A stretch of DNA of 64,000 nucleotides from a virus (Duplodnaviria > Caudoviricetes): the IMG/VR virus record IMGVR_UViG_3300029798_000001. One strand, written 5' to 3'. The notes below the pieces were generated by a model that saw only the letters and a program-made list of their open reading frames with translations, was not told the DNA's origin and searched no databases. A program made the translations under genes and the position numbers. Positions 41,084-63,239 of this stretch are shown here, one piece after another. The number at the start of each line of letters is the position of its first letter. Position 1 is the first letter of the stretch.

Positions 41084-42055
41084 ATGAACTATCTTGTAAT
41101 ATATCCCGGCCGTTTTCACCCTTTTCATCGCGGACATCTAGCCAGCTACGAGTATCTGACTAAAAAATATGGGCCAGAAAATGTCTATATTGCTACTAGC
41201 GATGTACAAGCACCGATTACCAGTCCGTTTAGTTATAGCGATAAAGTAGCGATGATGACTAAGTTGGGTATCCCTGCTAGTCATATTGTGCTAGTTAAAA
41301 ATCCCTATCAGCCAAAAGAAATAACAGATAATTTGCCGGTGGAAGCAAAGAACGATACAGCATTAATATTTGCAGTCAGTGCCAAAGATGGAGATAGATT
41401 TACATTTGGTACTAAAAAGAATGGCGAGCCTAGTTACATTCAACCATTACCAGAAAATCTTAAACAATTACAACCGTTAACTAAACACGCTTATGTTGAT
41501 GTAACTCCTACAGTTAATTTTAAAATCCGAGGAGTAGATGCTAACAGTGCCAGCGAAGTCCGCAAAATGTATCTTAAAGGTAGCGACGCAGACCGTGATC
41601 AAATCATAACAGAATTATACGGTACATATTATCCAGAACTACGAGATATATTTGATAAAAAACTAGGCGTCACAGAACGGGCACAAGGATTTATTAAAGA
41701 AGCCCGTGCTAGTCGTCATCCTTGTGCTGTAATAATCCTGGAAAAAATGTTGCATTTAGAGCGCCTAGCATTAAACGAATATAACGGTATGGCAGAAGGT
41801 GAAGTGATACCCTTTCCTGGAAAAGCTATTCCGCCCGACTTAGACCAAGCACAAAAATTAGCCCGTGAATTAATTGATGCTGCCTACAATGGCCACGGTG
41901 ATCCTGGTCAAAAAACGGCAGATATACGGCAACAATTACAACGCATGGGTTATAGAGTCCGTGGTGCTGGGCGTGGATTTGAACTGGTAAATGATCGATA
42001 TACATTTAAGCAGTTAATTAAGCCCTTTGATTATCTCGAAGAAAAAAAGCATTAA
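41084..42055 (+). CDS. HxGH nucleotidyltransferase (cytidylyltransferase/NMNAT-like) with appended C-terminal module
   Basis: YPGRFHPFHRGH; extra module after LNEYNGMAE-G. Confidence 0.8.
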   Translation: MNYLVIYPGRFHPFHRGHLASYEYLTKKYGPENVYIATSDVQAPITSPFSYSDKVAMMTKLGIPASHIVLVKNPYQPKEITDNLPVEAKNDTALIFAVSAKDGDRFTFGTKKNGEPSYIQPLPENLKQLQPLTKHAYVDVTPTVNFKIRGVDANSASEVRKMYLKGSDADRDQIITELYGTYYPELRDIFDKKLGVTERAQGFIKEARASRHPCAVIILEKMLHLERLALNEYNGMAEGEVIPFPGKAIPPDLDQAQKLARELIDAAYNGHGDPGQKTADIRQQLQRMGYRVRGAGRGFELVNDRYTFKQLIKPFDYLEEKKH

Positions 42056-43090: not shown

Positions 43091-46000
43091 ATGAATATTC
43101 AAGAATTGGATTCCTACAACCTTGGCGATGCTGTTAAGTTTAACAAGAAGTTAAACCCTCGGCTGTGGGGCAAAGACGAACATTTACTGCCGGAAGTGCG
43201 CGATCATCTATTAAAAATAGCCGATGATTTCCGCGAGTTCCTTGGAGTGACCGACCTACAACTAAAAGATATTACTATAAGTGGTTCAAATGCTGCCTAC
43301 ACCTATACTCCACATTCCGACATTGATCTACATTTAGTTGTAGATTTACCCGAAGCAGATGGGTCGGAAGTTTACCGTGAATTATTCGATGCCAAAAAGT
43401 ACCAATATAATGATATGCACCATATTAAAATTGGTGGATATGACATTGAAGTGTATGTACAAGATGCTAACAAGCCACATCGCAGTCAAGGTATCTATTC
43501 TATATTAAACAACCGATGGGTCGATGTACCTAAGCGTCGTCGACCCGAAGTAGATGACATCAGTATACGCAGTAAGTATGAAGATTTAAACCATCGTATT
43601 GAAGACGCGATTAAATCTAATAACCCCGACACAATAGGTGCATTGGCAAAAAAGATCAGCGATCTAAGACAAGCGGGCCTAGATGAACATGGCGAGTTTG
43701 GTCCAGAAAATCTAGCATTTAAAATGTTGCGTAGCCAGGGCATCATACAAAAATTATACGATGCTCGCAATGCCGCCAAAGATCACGAACTAAGTCTTAA
43801 AGAAAAAGCACCTCCAACAAGAGTTACATATGGATTTAAGACTCCGACTGTGGTAGAAGATGTTGGCATGTCGTGGGATGGCGTTAGCCCTAGTACTAAG
43901 ATGTTCCTAAGTGAAACAGAGTCAGACGAAGAAATACTTAAAGACTTTATTGAATTTTGCGTTAAAGAATTAAAAATTGAAAAGATGCCCGCGATCAAGT
44001 TGCGTAAAGATCCGCAATGGCCAGTGGTACACAAAACATTTGGTCGTTATATAAATGACCGGCACTTATTAGAAGTAGCCTGGGGTTCCCGCCATATTAT
44101 GGATGTACTACGCACTGTAGCCCACGAACTTACACATCGTCATCAACACGAGCGTGATGGCAACCGCATGGGACCCGAAGCTGGTGAAACTGGTAGTCCA
44201 TGGGAAAACGAAGCCAATGCCCGTGCCGGCGTACTAATGCGTGACTATGCTAGACTACATCCTGACTATTTTGCTGTAGGACAAGCCCAAGGCTTACACG
44301 CCGATGAGGTAACAGAAGCTTCTGTTATACAAAATCGTTTGCCGCCTAAGTTGGTAATAGGCGGCTATACATTTGTTCTTAATCCAACTACCCGCAATGT
44401 TACTGTTACTCATGGTGGCAAACCTTTTACTACCTACCATTATACTGGACTTAACAACTACGAATCATATGCAGATATTGCTTATCGTAAAATAGATCAA
44501 ACCAAATCAAGCGAGTTGGCAGATATAGCTAAAAGAGATCGTGCCAGCCCCACAGCGGCTCAACGTAGTTTTGAATACCCAACTGATTCCAGATATCAAG
44601 TTGCCATGCCCAATCAAGATCTTGACCAACTATATCGTCAGCACGATCAAGCAACAGCGCAACACGGAATCGTGGGCGGCATTACAGATTTTGGCAAATA
44701 CAGTTCCTTGGCCAAACGACGTAGACAGGCCGCACAAGCACAGGCCGACGAAGTTAAAGAAGCCAATCCAAATCAACAGTTGTCTTTGTATCGACCTGAT
44801 GGCACCACATACCGTGGTGAAAAAATGCCAGTGTTAGATCCAAACGATTTCCACAGTGACACCAATCCTCGAAAGCGTGTTGATCAAGTTACCCATCAAG
44901 ACTTAGCCAACAGGACTGCACCTGACCTGGTGGATCCTATTGAGCGGACTGAACGCAAGATTGACTTGGACCGATTAAAAAATGTAATTCGTGCCAACAT
45001 GAAAGATCTACTGTCAACTGAAACAGCAGTATTAAACATGCGTTACTGGAAAGACTTGACCTTGGAACAAACTGCACAAGCTCTGGGACTCACTCCTGAG
45101 CGTGTAAGACAAATAGAAGCCAAGGCCTTGAGAAAATTGCGGCATTTTTCCAAGAGCGATCAATTAAAACCGTTTGTAGAACCGCGGCTCACATGGCCAG
45201 GCATAAAAGAAGCTGTGGGCTACATTCCTACCGCGGCAGAAAAAAATGATCCTAGATTCAGCATGGCACTTACACAGGATATCCGTCCAGGACAACTAGG
45301 CAAAGAAGCAAACAAATTAAAATTAAAAACCAACAGTCAAGGCCAGCCGCAGATAGCTAATCCCAATGGCCTGTTTGAGAAATTAGCACTAGAGTTAGCA
45401 CAATTTAAAACGGTATCAGAGTCAGTAGAACAGTTAGACGAAGTGCGTATGGCTCCTAGCAACCTAATGCAGTGGGCCACCAGTCCAGAAGCCAAAGGCG
45501 TCCGTGCTGGTTTTGAAGCAGAGTTAATTTTCCGTGACACACAGCGTGATGATGACGAAGACTATGAAATGGAACCCGACTATGATCAAGATGAGCGTTG
45601 CCGTAGTATCAGTCAAGTAATAGACTTTTTTGGCGGTGGTGACTATGGCATGAGTAGTCGTGCATTAAACCGATTGCAGGAACAACTAGATGAAGCCTAC
45701 ATGGAGTGGCTTGATGAACAAATGATCTCTGACTTCAAACACGAAGCCGAAGATTTAATTCGTAAAGTATTAGTTGACGAAGGCGATTGGGATCTTGACA
45801 ACGAAATACAAAAGCAGTTGGCATTGATAGACGACCTAACAGATGACCAAATGAATGCTATTATACAAGCTGGCGAGCGGGCTCCTAAGTTTACAAGCAG
45901 TAAAGAAAAGGTATTATACGCAGAAGCTAATCCGTTATATGAAAAGTATTTAGATGCACAAGAAGAAGCCGAAGACCTGTTAGATGAGTTAGTTCAAGAT

Positions 46001-47851
46001 CATCTTAAAGCACAAGATGGTATTTACGATGCTGCCCTAGATGATTTCCGCGACAATTATTACATTGATGATGATAGTGGGTTTTTTGACGATGCCGGCC
46101 TACGATATATGAGTGACATAGCCAATAACTATGATGCAGAATGGCCCTACATGACCGGCGGTAATTCAGGCTCTGGCAGTCGTGATTGGGATAGCCTTAA
46201 AGATAGTTTAGAAAATACTATTGATATGCCAGTTAAAGTTAGCTCGGGCTATCACAATGCCACACGCAAAGAAGGTTTATGGATTATTGAACCTGATTCA
46301 AGCCTAACACCCGATGACTCCGATGACATGGGACTAGAAATCGTAAGTCCACCTATGCCACTATTGATGGCCCTGGAAAAATTACAAGCAGTCACAGACT
46401 GGGCCAACAGCGATACGGGCAATGCCTACACTAATAGTTCAACTGGCCTACACATGGGCGTTAGTGTTCCATTTAAAGGTGGTGATGTTGACTATCTTAA
46501 ACTAATCCTGTTCCTAGGTGACGAATATGTATTACAGAAGTTTGGTCGCGAAGCCAATACCTACTGTAAATCAGCTATGAGCAAGTTTAAAGAAAATATC
46601 AAAGGTGGTCGTGCTGACCCAGCAGGTGCGCTAAAACTCATGCAACACGGCCTACTTGAACTGGCACATAAAGAAATACAAAAAGGTGTAGGCGATGGCA
46701 AGTATACTTCGGCACATATACAAAACGGCTATATTGAATTCCGTAGTCCAGGTGGTGATTGGTTAGCTGAAGAGTCGGCTGACCCAGAAGTATTACAAAA
46801 CACTATGTTGCGTTTTGCCCGTGCTATGAGTCTTGCCGCTAACCCCAGTGAAGAACGCAGAGAATATGCCAAGAAGTTATACAAGTTAATTGCTCCTGAA
46901 GGTGACAGCGAGTTTGCATTGTTTAGTCAGTTTGCCGCGGGCGAACTCTCAGCAGAACAACTTAAGAAGCGTTGGGCTGAAAAGACCATCGGCACTGAAA
47001 AGAAAATGAATCAGCGTTGGCAATTATTCCAATTTGATAAGATTGCTGACCAATGGTTGCCAGTTCCCGGGCAGAGCTATAATGGCTACTCCGAAGATGA
47101 AGTTAAAAATAGAATATGGAGTAAGTTTGGGCGTGAAGCACTAGACTCCGGCGAATACGAACTACGCAACATGAGTGAAGACCAGCAGTGGGAAGTCTAC
47201 GATGTAAACACTGGTGAGACACTTGAGATTGTTGCAGGTAAGAACAAGGGCGAAGTAGCCGACAAAGTCTACGACAAGTATGCGGAGCAGGGAATTGGAT
47301 TTAATGTTCGACCATACGAAGATCCGGCAACAATGACTCCTCGTGCCAAGTTGGCCAAGCGTATTGCAACCAAGAAACCAGAACCGCAAAAACCTGCACA
47401 GGCTACAAACGAACGCGGTGTTCCTTATTGGGAAGTATATGAACTTGAAACTGGACATGTTGTCCATACTTTACTAAGCGACGATCTACCAGACGCTGTC
47501 ACAGACGCATACAATTGGCTGACTAGCATTGGTGCTGAACAACCAGACCTGTTTAAAGTGCGTCCTAAAATGAATGCCGACACTCCGGTCAAAGACATTG
47601 CACCCGATGTTGCTCAGAACTTTGGAGACGATTCAATGGCCGCCTACGAGAGGAACAGTGATCGCATTGATGCTATCAGAGCCGGACAAAATGCTACAGA
47701 CAGAGTAGGGTCCTGGAGCATATACGATGTTACCTTGGGGCGTGAAATCAGCAGAATGACCGATGTTCCGTGGCAAGAAGCCAGTGATCGTGCCGACATG
47801 CTCGAACGCAGTACTGGACATAATATGTCGGTCAGAGGGTTATCAGCATGA
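43091..47851 (+). CDS. giant polyvalent protein: Pol-beta nucleotidyltransferase, zincin metallopeptidase, sigma70 region 4, amidoligase and small modules
   Basis: GSNAAYTYTPHSDIDLH; HELTH; LTLEQTAQALGLTPERVRQIEAKALRKLR; GFEAE/EIVSPP/TGLHMGVS/IEFRSPG. Confidence 0.8.
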   Translation: MNIQELDSYNLGDAVKFNKKLNPRLWGKDEHLLPEVRDHLLKIADDFREFLGVTDLQLKDITISGSNAAYTYTPHSDIDLHLVVDLPEADGSEVYRELFDAKKYQYNDMHHIKIGGYDIEVYVQDANKPHRSQGIYSILNNRWVDVPKRRRPEVDDISIRSKYEDLNHRIEDAIKSNNPDTIGALAKKISDLRQAGLDEHGEFGPENLAFKMLRSQGIIQKLYDARNAAKDHELSLKEKAPPTRVTYGFKTPTVVEDVGMSWDGVSPSTKMFLSETESDEEILKDFIEFCVKELKIEKMPAIKLRKDPQWPVVHKTFGRYINDRHLLEVAWGSRHIMDVLRTVAHELTHRHQHERDGNRMGPEAGETGSPWENEANARAGVLMRDYARLHPDYFAVGQAQGLHADEVTEASVIQNRLPPKLVIGGYTFVLNPTTRNVTVTHGGKPFTTYHYTGLNNYESYADIAYRKIDQTKSSELADIAKRDRASPTAAQRSFEYPTDSRYQVAMPNQDLDQLYRQHDQATAQHGIVGGITDFGKYSSLAKRRRQAAQAQADEVKEANPNQQLSLYRPDGTTYRGEKMPVLDPNDFHSDTNPRKRVDQVTHQDLANRTAPDLVDPIERTERKIDLDRLKNVIRANMKDLLSTETAVLNMRYWKDLTLEQTAQALGLTPERVRQIEAKALRKLRHFSKSDQLKPFVEPRLTWPGIKEAVGYIPTAAEKNDPRFSMALTQDIRPGQLGKEANKLKLKTNSQGQPQIANPNGLFEKLALELAQFKTVSESVEQLDEVRMAPSNLMQWATSPEAKGVRAGFEAELIFRDTQRDDDEDYEMEPDYDQDERCRSISQVIDFFGGGDYGMSSRALNRLQEQLDEAYMEWLDEQMISDFKHEAEDLIRKVLVDEGDWDLDNEIQKQLALIDDLTDDQMNAIIQAGERAPKFTSSKEKVLYAEANPLYEKYLDAQEEAEDLLDELVQDHLKAQDGIYDAALDDFRDNYYIDDDSGFFDDAGLRYMSDIANNYDAEWPYMTGGNSGSGSRDWDSLKDSLENTIDMPVKVSSGYHNATRKEGLWIIEPDSSLTPDDSDDMGLEIVSPPMPLLMALEKLQAVTDWANSDTGNAYTNSSTGLHMGVSVPFKGGDVDYLKLILFLGDEYVLQKFGREANTYCKSAMSKFKENIKGGRADPAGALKLMQHGLLELAHKEIQKGVGDGKYTSAHIQNGYIEFRSPGGDWLAEESADPEVLQNTMLRFARAMSLAANPSEERREYAKKLYKLIAPEGDSEFALFSQFAAGELSAEQLKKRWAEKTIGTEKKMNQRWQLFQFDKIADQWLPVPGQSYNGYSEDEVKNRIWSKFGREALDSGEYELRNMSEDQQWEVYDVNTGETLEIVAGKNKGEVADKVYDKYAEQGIGFNVRPYEDPATMTPRAKLAKRIATKKPEPQKPAQATNERGVPYWEVYELETGHVVHTLLSDDLPDAVTDAYNWLTSIGAEQPDLFKVRPKMNADTPVKDIAPDVAQNFGDDSMAAYERNSDRIDAIRAGQNATDRVGSWSIYDVTLGREISRMTDVPWQEASDRADMLERSTGHNMSVRGLSA

Positions 47852-51365: not shown

Positions 51366-52841
51366 GTGTCACAAGACCATAACGATATCTATTCTATTGT
51401 AGAACGTCTTCGTATGCTTGAAGAAGGCTTAAACACGAATCAACGAAGTGTTAATCAACTTTCGGCCACATTTCGACCAAAAACAGTAGCAGTGCTTACT
51501 GCCAAAACTGATCCTAAAAATCCCCTGGCCGGCAAGTTAGTTGGTGGTTGCGAGGAAAGTGAAGAGCTTGATGATGACAATGCTATTAATAATGCAATAG
51601 ATCCAGAAAGAGATCGCAATACTATTGCCTCTGAAAGTCGTGTAGAAGAAGATGTCCTGGATAAAGTTAAAAGTAGTTTTTCAGACTATCTAAAAAGTAT
51701 TGAGGACAAGTATCGAGATTCTCACTTGAAAGATAAAAAACACGAAGATACAGATTTACGAGCAAAAGATAAAACAGATCGGGATCTACGCCCTAAACAA
51801 GTTACTGCCGAAGGCTTAGAACAACAATATCTATGGCACGGGTCAAGACAAAAGATTCCTATGTTAGAACCACGCCAATCAGTAGATACAGGTGGTGCGG
51901 CAGGTAGCAATCAAAATGCTATCTATGCTACAAGTGATCCTAAAGTTGCTATAGCAATGGGACTTACAACTCCTGGTAGCGATACAGGTATGTTCCCTAA
52001 CGATCCTCAGATGGTCTTGTTTAGTGGCAAGATTAGAAAAGGTGAAAATGTTTACCTACACAAGGTGCCGATGAATGGACCTGATGGCAAACCGCAGTTT
52101 GTTCAAGGTGGCAACAGTAGAGAGTGGTATTCCAAGCCAGGTGTTAAAGAAATTAAGCCACTAGAAGTAAAAGCAGTTCCTGTGGACCAGTATCTGAACT
52201 TGATTAGACAAGCAACACCGCAAGATTTAGAACTACAGAAAAAGTATATGAAGCAAGGTATAGCGGAAGCCATCGATACACAGGCATATTATATTGTTAA
52301 TGCTAACAAGAATTATTCAATCTTGGCAGGTCCGTTTGCGTCACGCGAGCAAGGCCGCGCAGAATTTCAAAAAATAATACATCAATATCCTGGCGACTTG
52401 AAAGATCTTAGTTTACTACAAGGTCATGTATTACAGCAATCACAAAAAGATGCACTGGATGAACCAGATAGCAAAGAGCCGTGGCATGGTATTAAAGATC
52501 CTGAGCTATTAAAAGATTTAATTGCTGATGCACAAGTTATGGACTACGATGAGTTCTACGATGAATACAGTAGTATGTTTGATGATCCAGAAGAATTCTG
52601 GGATAACTATCATAACGACGAGCAAGATATAGTAGAAAGCGCACCAGTTAAGACTATTACCAATGAATGTGGGTTGTGGGAAGTGCATGGTGATGATCAT
52701 AGCGGGTTTGCAATTCGCCACGGTAATCGTCAACTACCCACACGCTTTAAAAATTTAGAAGAGGCCGAGTTGGCCTTAGAGATGTTTAATATTCGTCGCC
52801 GTCGGCGTGATGACGCAGCGGATTACATAGACGAAGCATAA
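51366..52841 (+). CDS. modular protein containing an ADP-ribosyltransferase-like domain
   Basis: LWHGS...IYATS motif in module 51813-52253; module ends at QGIAE-A. Confidence 0.65.
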   Translation: MSQDHNDIYSIVERLRMLEEGLNTNQRSVNQLSATFRPKTVAVLTAKTDPKNPLAGKLVGGCEESEELDDDNAINNAIDPERDRNTIASESRVEEDVLDKVKSSFSDYLKSIEDKYRDSHLKDKKHEDTDLRAKDKTDRDLRPKQVTAEGLEQQYLWHGSRQKIPMLEPRQSVDTGGAAGSNQNAIYATSDPKVAIAMGLTTPGSDTGMFPNDPQMVLFSGKIRKGENVYLHKVPMNGPDGKPQFVQGGNSREWYSKPGVKEIKPLEVKAVPVDQYLNLIRQATPQDLELQKKYMKQGIAEAIDTQAYYIVNANKNYSILAGPFASREQGRAEFQKIIHQYPGDLKDLSLLQGHVLQQSQKDALDEPDSKEPWHGIKDPELLKDLIADAQVMDYDEFYDEYSSMFDDPEEFWDNYHNDEQDIVESAPVKTITNECGLWEVHGDDHSGFAIRHGNRQLPTRFKNLEEAELALEMFNIRRRRRDDAADYIDEA

Positions 52842-55800
52842 GGAAAAATAAATGTTTGCATTAGACCTATTCAACACAAAATACGAGAAGTCACTACAAG
52901 AGGGTGCCACAGATAACACGACCGAACATCTGCTTAAACCTCTCCATCTCCGTGCTGCAAACATTCTTACACAGTTGCGTTCCGGACATACTACTCCTGA
53001 AAAAGTAGCGGCCCTTACAAAAGAATATGAAGATTTAGTTGCAGAGCGTATGAGTATTCTTAAAGGTGAACACCCAGAATCAACAAACGAAATGGGTTAC
53101 GGTAGTCTAGGCGAAGATGATATGATTCCAGTTGGTCGTATGCAACCCGGTACACCAGAATATGCTGCCGCCCGTAATCGTTCTGTAAAATACGCAGAGT
53201 TGACACCAGATTACACAGGCGGGCATAAAACTGCTGGCCCTACTACTGTCGGATATAAAAAAGCAACAAACAAACCGTTGGTCCCAGGCGAAGTTGAAGT
53301 GGCGGAAGCCGGATTACCGGGCAATTTACCTCCAGAACAAATTCCGGGTAAAGAAGATTTACTAAAAGGTAAGGGTCGTCAAACTTACGAAGAAAATATA
53401 GACGAAGGGTTTGGCCCTGTTGGTAGTAAGGGATTAATGAATGGCAATTTTGCTACATTTATGAAAGCTCGCCAAAACAGGACACCAGTTACATTAGAAA
53501 TCGGTGGTGAGGAGTTTAGACTTACACCAACAATGATGGATGCTATGGCTAAGAAATATCTTGCAGATAAAGCCGCTAGTGATGCAGCCCCTACTAATCG
53601 AGATATAAAATTAATAGCTGTTAACAATTATCGTGCATTTGGTTATCCACAATTGATGAGAGCATTTATCGACGGTGTTGCTACTCACGACAACACTCCT
53701 CCGGCTAATGTGCCAGGTGAACAGTTGCCAATGTTCGAAAGAACTCAACAGGTTCAAAAAAAAAATTCTAAAAAAGCCGATCCAGATTTAGGTGCCGGTA
53801 CAGCTCGAGATGCGACGGTACAGAGAGAACTTCAAAAGGTTCGGGCCCGCCATCCTAATGCCCGTAGCGATATCGAAGCCCTGGTCAAAGACGAAATAGT
53901 TAATCAAGAACGAGTTGACCAGGAATTGTCTCAACAACAAGATAATATTCAACAACAAACAGCTCAATTAGCACAATTAGGTAGTGTAAATCGACAACAA
54001 GATACAAAAATAAACAGTTTACAGCAACAGTTAGCTACCGCGGTACAGTCTATTAAATCTGCACCCGTTACTCCAGCTACTACAAAACCCGCCAGTATGC
54101 CTGTTAGTAAGCCTGCTAGTGTTGCTCCTGCAACTACTACAGTGCCAAGTAGTATTACAGCAGCATTGCCGGTACCACAGACAGCCAAGGATCAAGAAAT
54201 TTACGATAAAGTTCAAAGTCTCGAAACAGAGCTTAAAGACAAAATTGATGCCATGGCTAGCTGGAATGCTATTGCACAAAAAGATCCTCAATCTAATAAT
54301 GAACTTACAGCACTGCGCAAAGAAGTTGAGCGCACTAAGAAAGAATTACAGCAACAAATTATTAAACTTAAACCAATTAAAAAGAAACCAACAACTCAAG
54401 CTCCGGCGTTATCAGACCCTAATGTAATTGATATAGATGCTTGGGAGGTTCCGGGGATGGCAGTACCCGAAGTGCCTGATAATATAAAAACCGAGCCAGG
54501 AACTGCTACGCCCGCAAAAGAATTACCGATTGATCAATTAGATCACCAAGTTGATACTACTCCATTCGCCGGTGGTACTAAAAACAATCAATGGGGTCCA
54601 AAAAATATGCCAGGTGGCAGATTTACAGTACAAGATGTTGACCCTTACGACATCGGAGTTCATGAAGCTGTTGAACCCGGTGAAGAAATCTCAACAAATG
54701 AATTACTATACCGTGCGGCTGTTGAGTATATGCAACACATGGGCCGCGAAGGTCAGCCAGTTGACTACGAAACAGCCGTTAAGTTGGCAGCCAAACATTA
54801 CCATATTCCTTACCGCCCAGGTATGGTTCCAGAATTACATGCCAAGCGTCAAGAACTAGATGCTAAACTTGATGCGGCTATTAGAGCTCGTCAAGCCGAG
54901 CGTGGTGCCCGTAAACAACGACAACTGGCTCGCACAGCGCCAACTACCCCAGAACAGGAAAAGAAAATGCAAGACTATTGGTCCAAGAATGCGCCACAGG
55001 CTACAAGAGTAAAAGCACCAACACGAAGTTTAGAAGAAAATCAACAGTTACATGTCGGTGATCCTATTGTTGTTACAGCACCCAACGAGTTTGAAGGTAA
55101 GACTGGTGAGATCTACGACTTTGCGCCAAGTGGCAAGTTTGTTATTGTCAACTTGTACAATCACGGCAAACACAGTATGCACCTAAGTGATGTTGAATAC
55201 AATCAATATGCCAACGACCAAGATGAGAAAGAATTTTGGAATGGTGATAAAGAAGTTAATGAAAGCAATATGAGTGAGTTAGATGCAATGCGTCAAGATC
55301 TTGAATTAATGAATGATCGCCAATTTAAAGTTGCCTATGGTATAAGCAAGGTAGCATTTAGGCAAAAGTATCGTGCATTATTGAATCCAGCACCTCAACA
55401 AGATGTTCCGGTAGAAGAAGGATGGCAAGACTTCAACAAGGTAGAGCCATATGCTGTTTGTTTAGCTGGCAAGCCTGTTAAGAAGTTTGACTACTATGAA
55501 GAAGCTCGCCGCTTCCACGATAACTGGAAGAAGAAGTTGTACCGCGAAGGCAACAAAGAAAAAGCAGATAAGATTACCTTGATGCCCATCATGGACGAAG
55601 GTGATGATCAGAATGGTCAACCTAGGGCTGGATTACCTGCAAATTTTGCAAACAGAATAATGGCATTAGATTTTCCACAAAGAAAAATATTTAGAGATTA
55701 TATAAATTCATTTAACAAAATTCGCCAGGCATCGGCCGATCTTAATAAGATGTTGGCTGGATTTCCTAAAGATATTATTGACGCTTATCAACAGTTAACT

Positions 55801-57146
55801 CCTGAGCAACAACAGTCAGTGTCAATGGTGTTAGAACCTGGTTGGGAAGAAGAAAACCAACTGGTACAAAAATATAAAAATGGAGTTGTAAAAAAACAAG
55901 GCGTGACAGAAGCTGGTAGCCCAGCACAACAGGCTGCCATCGCCATTGCTATGAAGCGGGCTGGTAAGAAACCTAAGCAAGCAGATGAGGGACAATTTAG
56001 CGTCACTGATGATCCATCTGCACATATTAAAGTATTATTTCTTAAAACAATAAACGGAAATGAATATCGTTTGGTAAAACAAGGCGGTGTGTATAAGATT
56101 TATGTAAACAGAAGTAAGAAAACCAAACAAGAATTTCCATCTTTTGACCTTGCTAAAAAAGCATTACAACAATTATTATTAAATGCAGTGAATACAGATG
56201 AAGCGTATACACCAAGTCCAGCTAAACCGTTTCGCAATCCTAGAGGCTTTAATAAACAAGGCACAGGTGTAGGCAATAAATTAGCACAACAAACTCGTGC
56301 TGAGTTAGCAAACATACAACCAAGGAAAGGTACACCGGTTCCAGCCAAAGAATTTGCTCAAGGTGTTTTGAAAGATTTAAAGAAGGTGAATGTAAAAGAA
56401 GCAGAAGGTAGTTGGATTGTGTATGATCCCGAAACCAAACAGATCAAGAAGCGTTTTAAAACACACACCGCAGGCAAGAGCTATGCTCAAACTCACGGCC
56501 TAGGATTTGCCAGTAGTGAATACTACTTTGACCGTGTTAAAGAACCGGTTAATGAACTTGATGTTAATACCTTAAAGAGTTATGCAGACAAGCGTGGAGC
56601 ACAAGTGGCCGCAATGAAGGCCGACAATCCTAATCCTCAAACAGGCAGTAAAGAATGGGTTCAACAAGCTGTTCCGGCACAACAAGTAGGTCTTGCAAAT
56701 CGTAAGATTGCTCGTAAAGAACGCCAGCAAGGTGTGGCGGAGGACTGGATTGATGACGATGCCGCAGAGCCATTGGCCAAATACTTTGCTGACTTATACT
56801 ATGGCGATTTTAGTGCTACTATGAAAGTTAAACTAACCTCACACATTTATCAAGCTATTCAAAACGGTGAGTTGAGTATTGAACAACTTAAAGCTGACAT
56901 TGATATGTTGGAAAAAGAAAAAGGCATTAAAGAGCAAGGTGTGGCGGAAGGCAAGGGTCTGGCTAAGAAGGTAAAGATTGTTAAAGGTCCAGATGCAGGC
57001 AAGACAGGTTGGATTAGAGAAGTTAAACATGGTGCTTTCAAAGGTGCTCCAAAAACTTATTATATTGATTTAGATGATGGTGGTCAGGCAAATAACTTAC
57101 CGGCCACAGCATTACGATTAGTTAAAGAACAAGGCATGGCGGAAGG
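52254..57146 (+). repeat. dispersed in-frame junction repeat CAAGGYRTRGCGGARG (QG[VIM]AE)
   Basis: Copies at 52254, 55897, 56728, 56935 and 57130; core GTGGCGGAAG at 53299. Confidence 0.85.
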
Positions 57147-57930
57147 CTATACTCCGGATACAAACTATTCTTATACTATTGTAGGCAACGGTGACGAATC
57201 TAAAGCGTATGATAGTAAAGAAGAAGCGCGAGATGCCATGCGTAAACTTGGCGCTGGTTATAAGATTAAACGCAAGCCACGCACAAGTGCTCGTAGTGTT
57301 AAAAAACATTTTAGTAATCGCAATATGGAACTTGGTGAAACACACGAACCACAGAAGTTTATTGTTACTATCAATGGTAAAGCCACTAGCCCACTATACC
57401 CAGATATGGCAGATAAATTATACATAGCGGCCAAGCGGGCACAACCTAATGCTCGTGTTGAAAAGACTGTGGCACAAACTACGGAGCGTCAAAAAGGTAT
57501 TGATCGTGTTAAAGCTGGCTACGGTGATGAAGATGCATTAGAATTACATGAACAACTGCCATCAACACCGCCGGCTAATCGCAAAGAGTATTTAGATCAA
57601 CGCGATAAGTTATTCCGTATGTTGGCAGTTGACACCAACCCAGTTAATAAGCAGATTATTAAACAGGCATTAAAAGATTTAGACAATCGATATGGTTCTA
57701 TAAAAAATCCAGTAAATGAAGAAAATAGCACCAGCAGTGAAGCTGTTGAAATAGCCCTAATTCGTCGTGTATTAGTAGCACATACTGATTTAATCATGGA
57801 TTTTGGTCTTGACAAGGTTACACAAGCCATCGAGGAAGTTGCTTACAATGTTGGTGATGTGGATGAAATCGGCACCAGTGATGTTAGTGGCTGGATCCAT
57901 CAAGTCAAACAAATACTCGGTGTTGAATGA
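52852..57930 (+). CDS. giant modular polyprotein (coiled coils, KOW/SH3-like and other small cassettes)
   Basis: 1692-aa ORF punctuated by repeated (V/I/L)xE-(G/A/S/D) and QGVAE junctions. Confidence 0.8.
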   Translation: MFALDLFNTKYEKSLQEGATDNTTEHLLKPLHLRAANILTQLRSGHTTPEKVAALTKEYEDLVAERMSILKGEHPESTNEMGYGSLGEDDMIPVGRMQPGTPEYAAARNRSVKYAELTPDYTGGHKTAGPTTVGYKKATNKPLVPGEVEVAEAGLPGNLPPEQIPGKEDLLKGKGRQTYEENIDEGFGPVGSKGLMNGNFATFMKARQNRTPVTLEIGGEEFRLTPTMMDAMAKKYLADKAASDAAPTNRDIKLIAVNNYRAFGYPQLMRAFIDGVATHDNTPPANVPGEQLPMFERTQQVQKKNSKKADPDLGAGTARDATVQRELQKVRARHPNARSDIEALVKDEIVNQERVDQELSQQQDNIQQQTAQLAQLGSVNRQQDTKINSLQQQLATAVQSIKSAPVTPATTKPASMPVSKPASVAPATTTVPSSITAALPVPQTAKDQEIYDKVQSLETELKDKIDAMASWNAIAQKDPQSNNELTALRKEVERTKKELQQQIIKLKPIKKKPTTQAPALSDPNVIDIDAWEVPGMAVPEVPDNIKTEPGTATPAKELPIDQLDHQVDTTPFAGGTKNNQWGPKNMPGGRFTVQDVDPYDIGVHEAVEPGEEISTNELLYRAAVEYMQHMGREGQPVDYETAVKLAAKHYHIPYRPGMVPELHAKRQELDAKLDAAIRARQAERGARKQRQLARTAPTTPEQEKKMQDYWSKNAPQATRVKAPTRSLEENQQLHVGDPIVVTAPNEFEGKTGEIYDFAPSGKFVIVNLYNHGKHSMHLSDVEYNQYANDQDEKEFWNGDKEVNESNMSELDAMRQDLELMNDRQFKVAYGISKVAFRQKYRALLNPAPQQDVPVEEGWQDFNKVEPYAVCLAGKPVKKFDYYEEARRFHDNWKKKLYREGNKEKADKITLMPIMDEGDDQNGQPRAGLPANFANRIMALDFPQRKIFRDYINSFNKIRQASADLNKMLAGFPKDIIDAYQQLTPEQQQSVSMVLEPGWEEENQLVQKYKNGVVKKQGVTEAGSPAQQAAIAIAMKRAGKKPKQADEGQFSVTDDPSAHIKVLFLKTINGNEYRLVKQGGVYKIYVNRSKKTKQEFPSFDLAKKALQQLLLNAVNTDEAYTPSPAKPFRNPRGFNKQGTGVGNKLAQQTRAELANIQPRKGTPVPAKEFAQGVLKDLKKVNVKEAEGSWIVYDPETKQIKKRFKTHTAGKSYAQTHGLGFASSEYYFDRVKEPVNELDVNTLKSYADKRGAQVAAMKADNPNPQTGSKEWVQQAVPAQQVGLANRKIARKERQQGVAEDWIDDDAAEPLAKYFADLYYGDFSATMKVKLTSHIYQAIQNGELSIEQLKADIDMLEKEKGIKEQGVAEGKGLAKKVKIVKGPDAGKTGWIREVKHGAFKGAPKTYYIDLDDGGQANNLPATALRLVKEQGMAEGYTPDTNYSYTIVGNGDESKAYDSKEEARDAMRKLGAGYKIKRKPRTSARSVKKHFSNRNMELGETHEPQKFIVTINGKATSPLYPDMADKLYIAAKRAQPNARVEKTVAQTTERQKGIDRVKAGYGDEDALELHEQLPSTPPANRKEYLDQRDKLFRMLAVDTNPVNKQIIKQALKDLDNRYGSIKNPVNEENSTSSEAVEIALIRRVLVAHTDLIMDFGLDKVTQAIEEVAYNVGDVDEIGTSDVSGWIHQVKQILGVE

Positions 57931-59142: not shown

Positions 59143-61293
59143 ATGAGTTTTGTAGATGCACTTTTTGATCGTGAACACGATCGTATCCATGTAGTTGAGC
59201 GCCGAGACGGTGAGCGGGTATACAAAGAATACCCTGCAAATTTTGTATTCTATTATGAAGACCCTCGTGGCAAGTTTCAAAGTATATTTGGCACACCGGT
59301 AAGTCGTTTTAGCTCACGTAACAATAAAGAATTCCGCAAAGAACTTAGGATACAATCAGGCAAGAAATTATTTGAATCTGATATCAATCCTGTATTTCGG
59401 TGCCTTGAAGAAAACTACAAAGGGCAAGACGGTCCAAAACTTAATGTAGCGTTCTTTGACATTGAGGTGGACTTTGATCCTGAGCGCGGATTTAGCCGCC
59501 CAGAGGATCCATTTAATGCTATCACTGCCATTTCAGTTTACCTACAGTGGTTAGAGCAAATGGTCACCTTGGTAATTCCACCTAAGCATATGAGCAAAGA
59601 AACAGCTCAAGAAATTGCCAACGAGTTTGAAAACACAATCATATTCACTGAAGAAGGAGAACTGTTAAAAACATTCCTAGACTTAATCGAAGATGCAGAT
59701 GCATTGTCGGGTTGGAACTCAGAAGGATTTGATATACCGTACACTGTCAACCGTGTAACTCGTATACTAAGTAAAGATGATACCCGCAGGTTTTGCTTAT
59801 GGAATCAATATCCCAAGAAGCGTACATTTGAACGCTTTGGTGCAGAAAACGAAACTTACGATTTGATTGGTCGTGTACATATGGATTATATGCAATTGTA
59901 TCGAAAATATACATATGAAGAACGCCATAGTTACAGTTTAGATGCCATTGCTGAATATGAACTACAAGAAACTAAAACAGTGTTCGAAGGCACACTGGAT
60001 CAATTATACAATCAAAACTTTAAAACATTTATTGAGTATAATCGACAAGATACAATGATTCTTGCCAAGTTAGATAAGAAACTAAAATTTTTAGATCTAG
60101 CCAACACCTTGGCACATGAAAATACTGTGCTATTGCAAACTACTATGGGTGCCGTGGCTGTGACAGAACAGGCCATTATCAATGAGGCACACGAGCGTAG
60201 TATGGTTGTTCCTAATCGTAAGGAACGCTATTCGGATGAAGATACACAAGCGGCCGGTGCCTATGTTGCTTATCCACGCAAGGGTATACATGAGTATGTA
60301 GGATCAATTGATATTAACTCACTATATCCAAGTGCTATTCGTGCGCTTAATATGGGTCCAGAAACTATTGTGGGGCAACTCCGTCCTACAATGACCGATC
60401 GTTATATTGCCGATAAGATGCGTAGTGGAAGTAGTTTTGCCGCAGCGTGGGAAGGCCTGTTTGGATCATTAGAATATGAAGCTGTAATGGCCAGTGAGCG
60501 CGGCACAGAGATTACAGTAGATTGGCAAGGTGGTGAAGATTCTGTACACAGTGCGGCAGAAGTTTGGAAGATGATTTTTGATTCTAACCAACCATGGATG
60601 CTTAGTGCCAACGGTACAATCTTTACCTATGAAAAAGAAGCAATTATTCCGGGATTGTTAAAACGCTGGTACGCCGAGCGGAAAGAAATGCAGTCCAAAC
60701 TTAAAGAATGTAAAAATGCAGAAGACGAAGAATATTGGGATAAACGACAACTCGTTAAAAAGATTAACCTTAACAGTCTCTATGGTGCTATCCTTAACCC
60801 TGGTTGCCGCTTTTTTGATAAGCGCATTGGACAATCTACCACACTAACCGGTCGTGCTATCGCCAAGCACATGGACGCCTATGTAAATGAATGTATCACT
60901 GGCAAGTATGACCATGTAGGCGAATCAATTATTTACGGTGACAGTGTAACCGGCAATACTCTTATTAAGACTGATTCTGGAGAAATAGCTATTGAAGAAT
61001 TATTTAGACAGACTCCTGAACATTGTATTATTGGTGACAAGGAATATGCTACTGGAGCATTGGCCAAAGTTGTGGGATTTAATGCGTATGAAGATTCTCC
61101 TATAATGAGCAATATATCGTACGTAATGCGACACAAAACAAAAAAGAAACTGTACAAAATTACGCTAGAAAATAATAAGTCAGTCACTGTAACCGAAGAT
61201 CATAGTATAATGGTAGATCGTGACGGATTCCTAATGGAAGTAAAACCCAATGACATCTTGGGTAAAGATTTAATTATCAGTCTGAATACATAA
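59143..61293 (+). CDS. polB: DNA polymerase B, N-terminal part (600 aa) fused to N-intein (116 aa)
   Basis: Exo motifs FDIE, GWNS..FD, YN.QD; Pol motifs DINSLYPS, KINLNSLYG, YGD followed by intein Ser1. Confidence 0.95.
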   Translation: MSFVDALFDREHDRIHVVERRDGERVYKEYPANFVFYYEDPRGKFQSIFGTPVSRFSSRNNKEFRKELRIQSGKKLFESDINPVFRCLEENYKGQDGPKLNVAFFDIEVDFDPERGFSRPEDPFNAITAISVYLQWLEQMVTLVIPPKHMSKETAQEIANEFENTIIFTEEGELLKTFLDLIEDADALSGWNSEGFDIPYTVNRVTRILSKDDTRRFCLWNQYPKKRTFERFGAENETYDLIGRVHMDYMQLYRKYTYEERHSYSLDAIAEYELQETKTVFEGTLDQLYNQNFKTFIEYNRQDTMILAKLDKKLKFLDLANTLAHENTVLLQTTMGAVAVTEQAIINEAHERSMVVPNRKERYSDEDTQAAGAYVAYPRKGIHEYVGSIDINSLYPSAIRALNMGPETIVGQLRPTMTDRYIADKMRSGSSFAAAWEGLFGSLEYEAVMASERGTEITVDWQGGEDSVHSAAEVWKMIFDSNQPWMLSANGTIFTYEKEAIIPGLLKRWYAERKEMQSKLKECKNAEDEEYWDKRQLVKKINLNSLYGAILNPGCRFFDKRIGQSTTLTGRAIAKHMDAYVNECITGKYDHVGESIIYGDSVTGNTLIKTDSGEIAIEELFRQTPEHCIIGDKEYATGALAKVVGFNAYEDSPIMSNISYVMRHKTKKKLYKITLENNKSVTVTEDHSIMVDRDGFLMEVKPNDILGKDLIISLNT
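60943..61293 (+). mobile_element. split intein, N-terminal half
   Basis: Block A SVTGNTLIKT; block B VTVTEDHSIM (TxxH); ends at TAA. Confidence 0.9.
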
Positions 61294-61320
61294 ATACTAT
61301 GAAGATAGGAGTATCATCAT

Positions 61321-62280
61321 ATGCCAACATGTTTAGAGTGCGGGTATTCAGCCCCAAGATTACAGTGGACACACTTCAAATACAAATGTACCGGAAAATT
61401 CAAAAACGGTAATGAGTATATGTCCGCACACCCCGGTAGTGAGATAATAGATCCAGAATTAAAGAAAAAATACGGGTTTACACTTGACTCGGCTGTCAAA
61501 AAGTATGGTGCTGTGGAAGGTCAAAAACGATGGAATGAGTATTGTGATGCGCAGGCAACCACTAATACTTTTGAATACAAACATGAAAAATACGGTTGGA
61601 CCCGTGAACAGTTTGACGAGTACAATTCATCAAGAGCAGTAACCATTGCAAACATGATCAAACGACATGGTGAAGAAATTGGAGTTGCTAAATGGCAAGA
61701 ATATTGCGAACGACAAGGATATACCAATACCAAAGAATATTTTATTGAAAAGTACGGTGCAATCATTGGCGTTAAAAAATATATTGAGGTTAACAAGAAA
61801 AAGAAAAACCCACACGACCCGGTGAGTATTTCTGAAAAATTAGGAATTACCTTGGACGAGGCGGTAGACATTATCTTGTCGAGAGAAAATTCTGGAAGAA
61901 GATATATTAGTAATCTTGAAGAAGAATTTACAAACATGCTTGAAGATAAAGTAGGACCACTTGACTATACCTCAGCTAAACGACCATTTGGCAAATGGTC
62001 TCATTTATTGAATACCTATGTTGTATATGATATAAAACACGGCAATTGCATTATTGAATTCAATGGTGATTACTGGCATGCTAATCCCAACATTTATGCT
62101 GGCACCGCTACAATAAGAGGTGTCCCGGCGGTTGATATATGGCGCCAGAATGTGTTAAAATTACAAACAGCACAGGATTTGGAATTCAAAACCCTAGTGG
62201 TTTGGGAAACAGAATTTCGAAATGATAAAGTTGGAACAATTAATAAGGTAGCAGAATGGATATTACAAGAACAACCGTAA
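61321..62280 (+). mobile_element. free-standing Vsr-like/PD-(D/E)XK homing endonuclease between the intein halves
   Basis: Repeated KYG...W.EYC..Q motifs; YDIK...IIEFNGDYWHANP...LVVWE; own TAAATA (61291) and AGGAG RBS. Confidence 0.85.
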
Positions 62281-62381
62281 AAAGTATTGATTGTCTCGGT
62301 GAGGTGGATGACTATGTGTATGATCTCAGTATAGAAGATCAAGATCCTTATTTTTTTGCCAATGACATATTGGTGCATAAT
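62256..62381 (+). mobile_element. split intein, C-terminal half
   Basis: Block F VYDLSIE; block G HN; +1 residue Thr. Confidence 0.9.
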
Positions 62382-63239
62382 ACCGACTCGTGTTATTTCA
62401 CTGCATACCCTGTGTTGCAAAAAGAAATCGAAGCTGGTACAATGTCTTGGTCGAAAGAAATTGCGGTACAATTATATAACTCTATTGCCGACCAAGTTAA
62501 TGATAGCTTTCCAGGATTTATGGAACAAGCATTTCATGTACCTAGAGAAATGGGCGAAGTGATCAAAGGTGGGCGAGAGATTGTCGCAAGTAAAGGGCTG
62601 TTTATTACCAAGAAGCGGTATGCTGTATTGTATTATGATAAAGAAAATAAGCGTGTAGATACCCACGGTAGTCCTGGTAAAGTAAAAGCCATGGGCCTTG
62701 ATTTAAAAAGATCAGATACTCCCAAGGTTATTCAAGAATTTTTAAGCGAGATTCTCGACGAGGTACTCACAGGCTCCACCAGAGATCAGGTTATTGAAAA
62801 GATCCGCGAATTTAAGTATATTTTTAAAGAGAGGCCGGGTTGGGAGAAGGGTAGTCCTAAGCGTGTAAACAACTTAACCAAATATGGTAAGGAAGAAGAA
62901 AGATTAGGCAAAGCCAATATGCCAGGACATGTCCGTGCTGCACTTAATTGGAATAATCTTCGCAGGATGAATGGCGACAAATATAGTTTACAGATTGTTG
63001 ATGGCATGAAAACAATTGTATGTAAACTAAAATCTAATCCACTTGGCTGGACTAGCATTGGTTACCCTACTGACGAAACACATTTGCCACAATGGTTTAA
63101 AGAGTTGCCGTTTGATGACACCGAAATGGAAGCCACTGTAGTTGATCAAAAGCTAGACAATTTATTAAGTGTATTAGAATGGGACTTGGCCAGTGCTACT
63201 AACACTAAAAATATTTTTCAAACATTGTTCGAGTGGTAA
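62256..63239 (+). CDS. polB: C-intein (42 aa) fused to DNA polymerase B C-terminal part
   Basis: VYDLSIE...ILVHN then TDSCYF (restores YGDTDS); KKRYA; GLDLKRSDTP. Confidence 0.95.
   Translation: MDITRTTVKSIDCLGEVDDYVYDLSIEDQDPYFFANDILVHNTDSCYFTAYPVLQKEIEAGTMSWSKEIAVQLYNSIADQVNDSFPGFMEQAFHVPREMGEVIKGGREIVASKGLFITKKRYAVLYYDKENKRVDTHGSPGKVKAMGLDLKRSDTPKVIQEFLSEILDEVLTGSTRDQVIEKIREFKYIFKERPGWEKGSPKRVNNLTKYGKEEERLGKANMPGHVRAALNWNNLRRMNGDKYSLQIVDGMKTIVCKLKSNPLGWTSIGYPTDETHLPQWFKELPFDDTEMEATVVDQKLDNLLSVLEWDLASATNTKNIFQTLFEW

Follow-up and report, generated by a model that had tools for sequence, protein, structure and literature searches.

A fixed in-frame DNA repeat at the cassette junctions of two candidate polyproteins from a T4-related freshwater jumbo phage

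Why should a DNA sequence of about 17 nt recur in frame at the borders between unrelated protein modules, and what might the peptide that it encodes do there? The question is raised by two adjacent large genes, P1 (51366–52841) and P2 (52852–57930), in a 64,000-nt stretch of DNA (referred to here as the window) from the IMG/VR virus record IMGVR_UViG_3300029798_000001 (Duplodnaviria; Caudoviricetes). The window comes from an uncultured jumbo phage of fresh water that belongs to the wider T4-related group. P1 starts at a GTG codon and encodes a 491-residue mosaic in which an N-domain (amino acids 1–145) and a C-domain (amino acids 424–491) enclose two cassettes. P2 encodes a 1692-residue mosaic in which a conserved, leader-like N-terminus of 17 residues (MFALDLFN...LQE-GA) is followed by a middle part that varies, by an array of cassettes (amino acids ~1000–1620) and by a conserved 72-residue C-terminal domain. 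Both genes, and all of the repeat copies and cassettes described below, lie on the plus strand.

We propose, with a probability of roughly 0.6, that P1 and P2 are polyproteins built from cassettes, with a dual-coded junction, in a jumbo phage related to T4, and that they are cut and loaded into the capsid. Small, independently folding modules would be strung together through a six-residue junction, (K/E)-Q-G-V-A-E|G. As DNA, the ~17-nt sequence CAAGGTGTGGCGGAAGG, identical at silent positions, would serve as short in-frame homology at which the general recombination machinery of the phage could exchange, delete, insert and reorder cassettes within and between co-infecting relatives. As protein, the series hydrophobic-small-Glu followed by a small residue would be a cut site for a gp21-like (Peptidase_S77) prohead protease. 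The polyprotein would enter the prohead by means of its leader or terminal domains and would then be cut into many small proteins travelling alongside the DNA in the manner of the internal proteins and Alt of T4.

The repeat and its fixation at silent sites

In P1 the repeat QGIAE-A (52254–52270; amino acids 297–301) separates a cassette of predicted ADP-ribosyltransferase (ART) fold (51813–52268; amino acids 150–301), which carries H-G-S, Y-A-T and R-E motifs, from cassette B (52269–52637; amino acids 302–424). Two decayed copies that were missed in the first reading mark the outer edges of this pair: QVTAE-G (51798–51814) lies upstream of the ART cassette, where relatives carry a canonical repeat, and QDIVE-S (52623–52639) lies downstream of cassette B. 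P2 contains an 11-nt partial copy, VAE-AG (53299–53309), and the copies QGVTE-A (55897–55913; amino acids 1016–1020), QGVAE-D (56728–56744; amino acids 1293–1297), QGVAE-G (56935–56951; amino acids 1362–1366) and QGMAE-G (57130–57146; amino acids 1427–1431). The last three had been described as delimiting two unrelated mini-domains, and they do enclose mutually unrelated segments, a helical mini-cassette of 69 residues (56743–56949; amino acids 1298–1366) and a KOW/SH3-like mini-cassette of 65 residues (56950–57144; amino acids 1367–1431), the latter with a weak KOW match (E 0.03). Every copy listed in an earlier note on this DNA was found exactly in place, including a degenerate one, NGMAE-G (41783–41799), in the open reading frame (ORF) of an HxGH nucleotidyltransferase (41084–42055). 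The proposal that this copy marks an added module also stood, as relatives of the enzyme align only to residue 238, the Glu of NGMAE, and the 85 residues behind it have no counterpart in them. The enzyme itself is NMNAT/cytidylyltransferase-like, and at another locus (L026, 9164–10498) a direct fusion through QGVAE joins the same HxGH enzyme to the ART cassette, possibly a pairing of NAD synthesis with NAD use.

The repeat is far more frequent in the window than expected: the degenerate DNA pattern CARGGNRTNRCNGARG gives five matches in the 64 kb, all in frame in P1 or P2, against 0.01 expected, and AGCAAGGTGTGGCGGA is present at both 56726 and 56933. The earlier note had judged by eye that the Ala codon of the repeat, GCG, is uncommon in this genome. 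When computed over 20 ORFs of the window, the share of GCG among Ala codons is 8% and that of GTG among Val codons 15%, and GCG occupies all four Ala positions of the repeat copies.

For a wider comparison, 65 related loci were taken from IMG/VR. In 59 unique contexts the codons of the motif depart strongly from the background (given in parentheses): CAA 98% (70%), GGT 93% (45%), GTG 80% (19%), GCG 88% (7%) and GAA 86% (79%). Third positions within the repeat carry 1.0–1.4 bits of information, compared with ~0.1 bit in the flanks (90 contexts in which both flanks differ). One identical 15-mer encodes 50 of 76 QGVAE peptides, the loci having been chosen by protein homology, where codon usage predicts 0.25, and the exact 17-mer is found in at least 120 IMG/VR contigs. 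The repeat stands apart in this respect, because neither the invariant residues of the ART cassette, at which the frequency of the commonest codon ranges from 0.33 to 0.91, nor the leaders resembling the T4 capsid-targeting sequence (CTS) show comparable fixation of silent sites. The suggestion of the earlier note that conservation may act on the DNA is thus borne out, and a constraint acting on the repeat at the DNA level is, on these comparisons, almost certain.

Two other sources of codon bias were considered and rejected. A pause at rare codons between domains is ruled out since CAA and GGT, both common codons, show even stronger fixation than the rare codons do. An internal Shine–Dalgarno or restart signal was ruled out by inspection, there being no start codons at the cassette starts and a weak anti-Shine–Dalgarno match.

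The distribution of the element is as narrow as its sequence. A DNA search allowing up to three mismatches recovered hardly any copies off the coding strand or out of the QGVAE frame, and none in intergenic DNA. In an independent set of 120 contigs, 161 of the 162 exact 17-mers among the matches listed are in frame in the longest ORF; the repeat-bearing ORFs, again among the matches listed, have a median length of 501 residues, and 84 of 125 hold two or more copies. In near-complete relatives the repeat is confined to a single locus of ~7 kb per genome.

Exchange of cassettes at the repeat

The earlier note had cast the repeat as a handle for gaining, losing and reordering cassettes, and this is upheld by homology that breaks at the repeat, by a chimeric crossover, by repeat-to-repeat joints in lake contigs and by the fixed synonymous sites. 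Orthologues of P1 are only 190–270 residues long and retain just the N-domain and the C-domain; residues 146–423 are accordingly read as inserted cassettes. In P2 orthologues the first ~90 and the last 72 residues are retained, with differing sequence between them. When all sequences were compared with one another, 31% of the internal ends of homology lay no more than six residues from G-[VIML]-[ATSG]-E, as against 3.8% for random positions (maximum 5.4%), a large effect even though such ends are non-independent events. The ends peak exactly on the Glu, and the starts peak three to five residues before it. Gains, losses and changes of order among relatives therefore do break at the repeat, though not at every boundary.

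One locus from another metagenome, L005, records a single exchange. It is 99.4% identical to the window over 56578–56741 and 96.8% identical over 52252–52626, and the 16 nt shared by the two alignments are the repeat. Within that repeat the letters GGTGT, as in P2, are followed by AGCGGAA, as in P1, so the crossover took place inside the repeat. Cassette B of P1 has therefore come to lie within a P2 orthologue, where it follows a repeat that matches the copy at 56728. Homology to L005, and to a further locus, L006, starts at the QGMAE-G copy at 57130.

Comparison at the population level gave the same picture when contigs from four other lake samples were aligned to the stretch. They include an in-frame deletion of 402 nt, present in a second run too, that joins 56734 to 57137, the joint being ambiguous over 10 nt, and restores a perfect CAAGGTGTGGCGGAAGG from the copies at 56728 and 57130. 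They further include a replacement between 56745 and 56933, three joints that end at 56929 or 57124, just 5' of a repeat, two back-joints from 56950 and 56954, one of which leads into the ART cassette at 51828, and one joint that starts from the partial copy at 53309. Loose ends of contigs occur at 56726, 56931, 56951–2 and 57146, and joints and loose ends together cluster at 56726–56745, 56929–56954 and 57124–57146, with several at the QGVAE-G copy. Repeats make up ~2% of the stretch, yet they are touched by about half of the listed joints. The junction variants that the earlier note had proposed to seek in metagenomic reads are thus present as deletions, replacements and reorderings joined at repeats. 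Assembly artefact was ruled out as the source of the joints: the same junctions occur in independent IMG/VR assemblies, and the 17-nt repeat is shorter than the Logan k-mer of 31. Taken together, these comparisons make exchange of cassettes at the repeat very probable.

Breakpoints might also gather at linkers through selection alone, if illegitimate recombination struck anywhere and only in-frame joints between intact domains survived. This is the standard explanation of phage mosaicism, and it would accommodate boundaries without a repeat such as 57329/57716, the edges of a cassette of ~129 residues (57330–57715) that L005, L006 and one lake variant lack. It leaves unexplained, however, the fixation of silent sites, which are more conserved in the repeat than at other invariant residues, the joints that restore a perfect repeat with 5–10 nt of ambiguity and the chimeric repeat of L005, and we find it barely credible. 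The edges of the ~129-residue cassette themselves carry only short microhomology of the ATGAAGAA type.

It is also very improbable, if slightly less so, that the 17-mer is a dedicated site or hotspot for a DNA enzyme, such as a site-specific recombinase, a homing-type nuclease or a host Chi-like sequence, rather than passive homology. Extreme nucleotide conservation over hundreds of contigs and uniform orientation are what such a site would show. On the other hand, the sequence never occurs outside the QGVAE frame or in intergenic DNA, the 17-mer has no palindromic structure, no recombinase adjoins the loci scanned, and the crossover points vary inside the repeat, as in homologous exchange. 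For similar reasons the comparison with integrons made in the earlier note holds only as an analogy: the 17-mer lacks inverted symmetry, its crossover points vary and their pattern fits general short-homology recombination. No integrase was found among the ~30 ORFs covered by a non-exhaustive scan of the window.

The junction as a candidate prohead protease site

The peptide encoded by the repeat invites comparison with the maturation signals of T4, in which gp21 cuts after Glu in L/I-X-E and cargo proteins bear N-terminal targeting propeptides of 10–19 residues (PMC9026906), the CTS of the T4 internal proteins being MKTYQEFIAE (PMC8442874). The linker, V/I/M-A/T-E followed by G, A, D, E or S, fits the scheme hydrophobic-x-E, and its residues are disordered in the AlphaFold2 (AF2) model of the ART cassette. 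A Peptidase_S77 (T4 gp21) homologue and a gp23-type capsid protein are present in four of five large relatives, and one relative, G005, holds Peptidase_S77 together with P1/P2 orthologues. Peptidase_S77 was not found in five closer relatives, but these are 22–45% complete and hence uninformative.

Leaders provide a second parallel. The pattern M-[RK]-x-x-E-F-[ILV]-x-E, which resembles the T4 CTS, heads 77–84 ORFs in related loci, multi-cassette ORFs among them; cassette ORFs of relatives start MRAxEFIxE, and in some ORFs GVAE follows immediately on the leader (MRATEFIIEGVAE-G, MRINEILVEQGVAE). The same domain families begin either right after the linker Glu, in polyproteins, or right after the last Glu of a leader, in stand-alone ORFs, of which 24 of 28 have a CTS-like leader. 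A cut after Glu in both linker and leader would therefore release the same mature protein from either arrangement. P1 and P2 have conserved leader-like N-termini that end LEE|G and LQE|G, a resemblance only, and that of P2 (MFALDLFN...L-x-E|GA) is conserved among its orthologues. From these features, cleavage after the linker Glu by a gp21-like protease appears moderately probable, and the chances that the cassettes are loaded into the capsid and ejected from it are about even.

Other N-termini in the window and in related loci bear similar marks. A second class of leader, M-F-x-(D/N)-(D/E)-L-F-(D/N), heads P2 (52852–52905) and many repeat-bearing ORFs (in L095, L100, L166, L196, L199 and others) and resembles the N-terminus of T4 Alt, MELITELFDE. 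The window ORFs that start at 47848 (GH19 lysozyme-like), 48804 (GNAT) and 57927 (cytidine/dCMP deaminase-like) begin MRAQEFIFEE, MRLYEIARIP and MRFGEFKRAS, respectively, with CTS resemblance only; the start of each overlaps the stop of the preceding large ORF (ATGA).

Several observations weigh against the proposal as a whole. P1 and P2 lack a canonical MRxxEF leader, their N-termini being only leader-like. In relatives the capsid proteins are probably matured at (M/Y)-L-x-E|N rather than at QGVAE; the QGVAE motif is absent from the head genes of the 354-kb relative G001; and the linker has Val or Met at P3, where T4 has Leu or Ile. Much of the statistics comes from related, non-independent sequences, and some cassette boundaries, such as those of the 57330–57715 indel, are without a repeat.

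In G001, nine of 23 matches to G-[VIML]-[AT]-E lie in three adjacent ORFs, and the scattered remainder use ordinary codons. As the motif sits in those three ORFs and in none of the head genes, QGVAE is not the general site of the protease; that role was ruled out also by the (M/Y)L-x-E|N of the capsid proteins.

Might QGVAE-G instead be a flexible hinge that is left uncleaved? It would then be a linker for recombination only, the peptide being conserved as a by-product of a DNA repeat kept uniform by recombination or gene conversion, and P1 and P2 would act as intact polyvalent proteins. The DNA-level fixation does exceed any protein need, the motif is limited to one locus per genome with none in head proteins, and polyvalent proteins such as N4 vRNAP are packaged uncut (PMC5512222). 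The pattern of change within the repeat points the other way. Mismatches gather at third positions and at the first base of the Gln codon (giving Lys or Glu) and otherwise avoid codon positions 1 and 2, while the first two bases of the Glu codon never change, so that the Glu is invariant. Even where the DNA of a copy has decayed, x-x-E followed by a small residue is retained, and the linker Glu aligns with the terminal Glu of the CTS-like leaders that precede the same domains. We consider an uncleaved hinge rather unlikely.

Still less likely, in our judgement, is a classical viral polyprotein whose junction is cut in the cytoplasm by a host protease, by another phage protease or by autoproteolysis. 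The locus lies among genes for replication and nucleotide metabolism, outside the head module, and the two proteins have no canonical CTS, as such a polyprotein would lead one to expect. The T4 internal protein and alt genes, however, likewise lie outside the head cluster; no protease domain was detected in P1, P2 or the neighbouring ORFs scanned, and Glu at the cleavage position P1 with a hydrophobic residue at P3 is the signature of gp21-type enzymes. Cleavage in the prohead by a gp21-like protease is the reading that we retain.

Cassette contents, genome setting and relation to known systems

Several unrelated effector-type domains per polypeptide, in mosaic architectures, are seen in P1, P2 and their relatives. 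P1 residues 150–301 gave an AF2 model with a pLDDT of 74.8, the top PDB structure matches of which are all of ART fold (Arr, Tpt1/KptA, RES, MbcT, cholera toxin A and tankyrase), although with weak scores (E 1.7e-3, TM ~0.4). Comparison with AlphaFold database (AFDB) clusters, DUF3990 included, gave E 1e-8, and in the alignment of the cassette H9, Y38 and E104 are invariant. The cassette has no Pfam match, and a PDB sequence-profile search with its alignment found nothing. We assign it as a predicted ADP-ribosyltransferase-fold domain, the model-based scores being weak. Dozens of proteins that otherwise differ carry the segment at 58–88% identity, with matches that stop at residues 301–302, the Glu of QGIAE. 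In a collection of 5.8 billion proteins the ART module is found in hundreds of metagenomic proteins of many architectures, joined to GNAT, ParB-like, NUDIX and other domains; the collection also includes a 246-kb contig that bears P1. The mini-cassettes of P2 (69 residues, helical; 65 residues, KOW-like; ~62 residues, DUF2188-like) have few relatives. Elsewhere in P2, an SH3/KOW-like module of ~63 residues (55411–55599; amino acids 854–916) is 78–92% identical in many otherwise different proteins of related phages and is far more conserved than its surroundings.

The runs that contain the stretch are freshwater or lake metagenomes without exception (12 studies). The family-B DNA polymerase of the window is ~50% identical to the polB of PA5oct, Phosso, Atu_ph07 and SCTP-2, and further genes encode a clamp loader, a ClpB-like ATPase, a GH19 lysozyme-like protein, a GNAT and a deaminase; P1 and P2 are surrounded by replication and nucleotide-metabolism genes (ClpB-like ATPase, polB and deaminase), not by a head module. 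Neither protein gave a match in 50,697 phage records by megablast or tblastn, and searches of Pfam and PHROG returned only sub-threshold matches and no significant family. The clade has no cultured member, and the P1 and P2 genes have no cultured relative.

Some neighbouring features may be recorded. The gene directly 5' of P1 (50922–51362) encodes a ferritin/Dps-like protein that binds DNA, annotated as Pfam PF00210 when genes were called on identical contigs and as 'DNA binding protein' in PHROG. A protein of 1586 residues (43091–47851) combines a phage family of unknown function (amino acids 15–235), sigma-70 region 4 (amino acids ~612–732) and an amidoligase-like domain (amino acids ~1054–1171), and contains no QGVAE copy. 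The family-B DNA polymerase gene (59143–63239) is interrupted: the ORF 59143–61293 ends in an intein-splicing domain, a separate ORF of 319 residues (61321–62280) follows and the polymerase resumes after ~62380, and the corresponding region 60942–62379 is wholly absent from L005, L006 and L007. The T4 late promoter TATAAATA occurs once in the window against 7.6 expected. TAAATAC lies ~10–50 nt 5' of several ORF starts (9587, 14317, 43079, 49648, 50801 and 61291), including both starts of large-ORF operons, and overall is not enriched in the window (14 against 18 expected).

The closest functional parallel would be IPI, IPII and IPIII, the internal proteins of T-even phages, together with Alt. 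A protease of the T4 family, found here in relatives, short leaders ending in hydrophobic-x-Glu, and diverse, fast-evolving cargo of which only the targeting and processing signal is conserved (PMC3012670) are common to both; the putative ART-fold cargo parallels the packaged Alt, and the genes lie outside the head cluster. In contrast to the T-even proteins, P1 and P2 have many putative cargo modules in one ORF with internal processing-type linkers, their linker DNA is fixed at silent sites and forms an exchange point, and P3 is Val or Met instead of Leu or Ile. Head proteins of phiKZ-like phages and SPN3US (gp175 / gp245) likewise undergo several cuts behind Glu, there after S/A/G-X-E or A-X-E, by a diverged homologue of gp21, and many of the resulting pieces remain within the head and leave it by ejection (PMC5694885; PMC10052503). 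That lineage and motif are different, and no DNA-conserved shuffling linker is reported there.

Polyvalent proteins (Iyer et al., 2017; PMC5512222) share with P1 and P2 large size, several unrelated effector-type domains, mosaicism and predicted delivery with the DNA. They differ in their anchor and processing domains: scans with Pfam and PHROG detected no MuF or MPTase/zincin domain in P1 or P2, nor was an autoprotease domain detected, and the modules here are mostly of 60–130 residues with one fixed linker. A term search of the text of the same paper found no conserved DNA-level junction.

As for exchange, the PeSL cassettes in hyperplastic regions of T4-type phages (Arbiol et al., 2010; PMC2839356) also have short conserved repeats flanking variable units; through these repeats, homologous recombination between related phages of the T4 type inserts, deletes and replaces units (PMC2839356). 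PeSLs, however, are intergenic promoter/stem-loop units that shuffle whole genes, whereas here an in-frame coding repeat shuffles modules inside an ORF. In the adhesins and tail fibres of T-even phages (gp38 glycine-rich motifs and His boxes; PMC3157838) recombination in or near short in-frame motifs likewise yields chimeras from a shared pool of segments, but those motifs are structural parts of one fold, while the present motif lies between independent domains and resembles a protease site. A full-text literature search for the linker peptide gave only alpha-synuclein papers, and searches on huge-phage cargo gave nothing equivalent. What sets P1 and P2 apart from the known systems is the concatenation of putative cargo in one ORF, the single fixed junction and the fixation of that junction at silent sites.

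We raise tentatively, as a possibility that we doubt more than we believe, that the 17-nt junction is a selected device for evolvability, at once cut site and in-frame recombination signal, which would give the lake jumbo phage clade a shared pool of capsid-delivered modules, probably for anti-defence or host takeover, integron-like at the protein level yet without an integrase. A coding linker fixed at silent sites offers a clean natural case in which to ask whether recombination signals inside genes are themselves selected. If the proposal for P1 and P2 is true, the linker and the leaders would form a sequence tag for hundreds of candidate delivered effectors in metagenomes, and the arrangement would be a natural design for multi-cargo packaging in T4-type vectors. 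For the phages themselves, one 17-nt sequence would then serve both the loading into the capsid of many small proteins encoded by a single gene and their in-frame exchange with relatives, which would explain the fast diversification of injected anti-defence and host-takeover arsenals.

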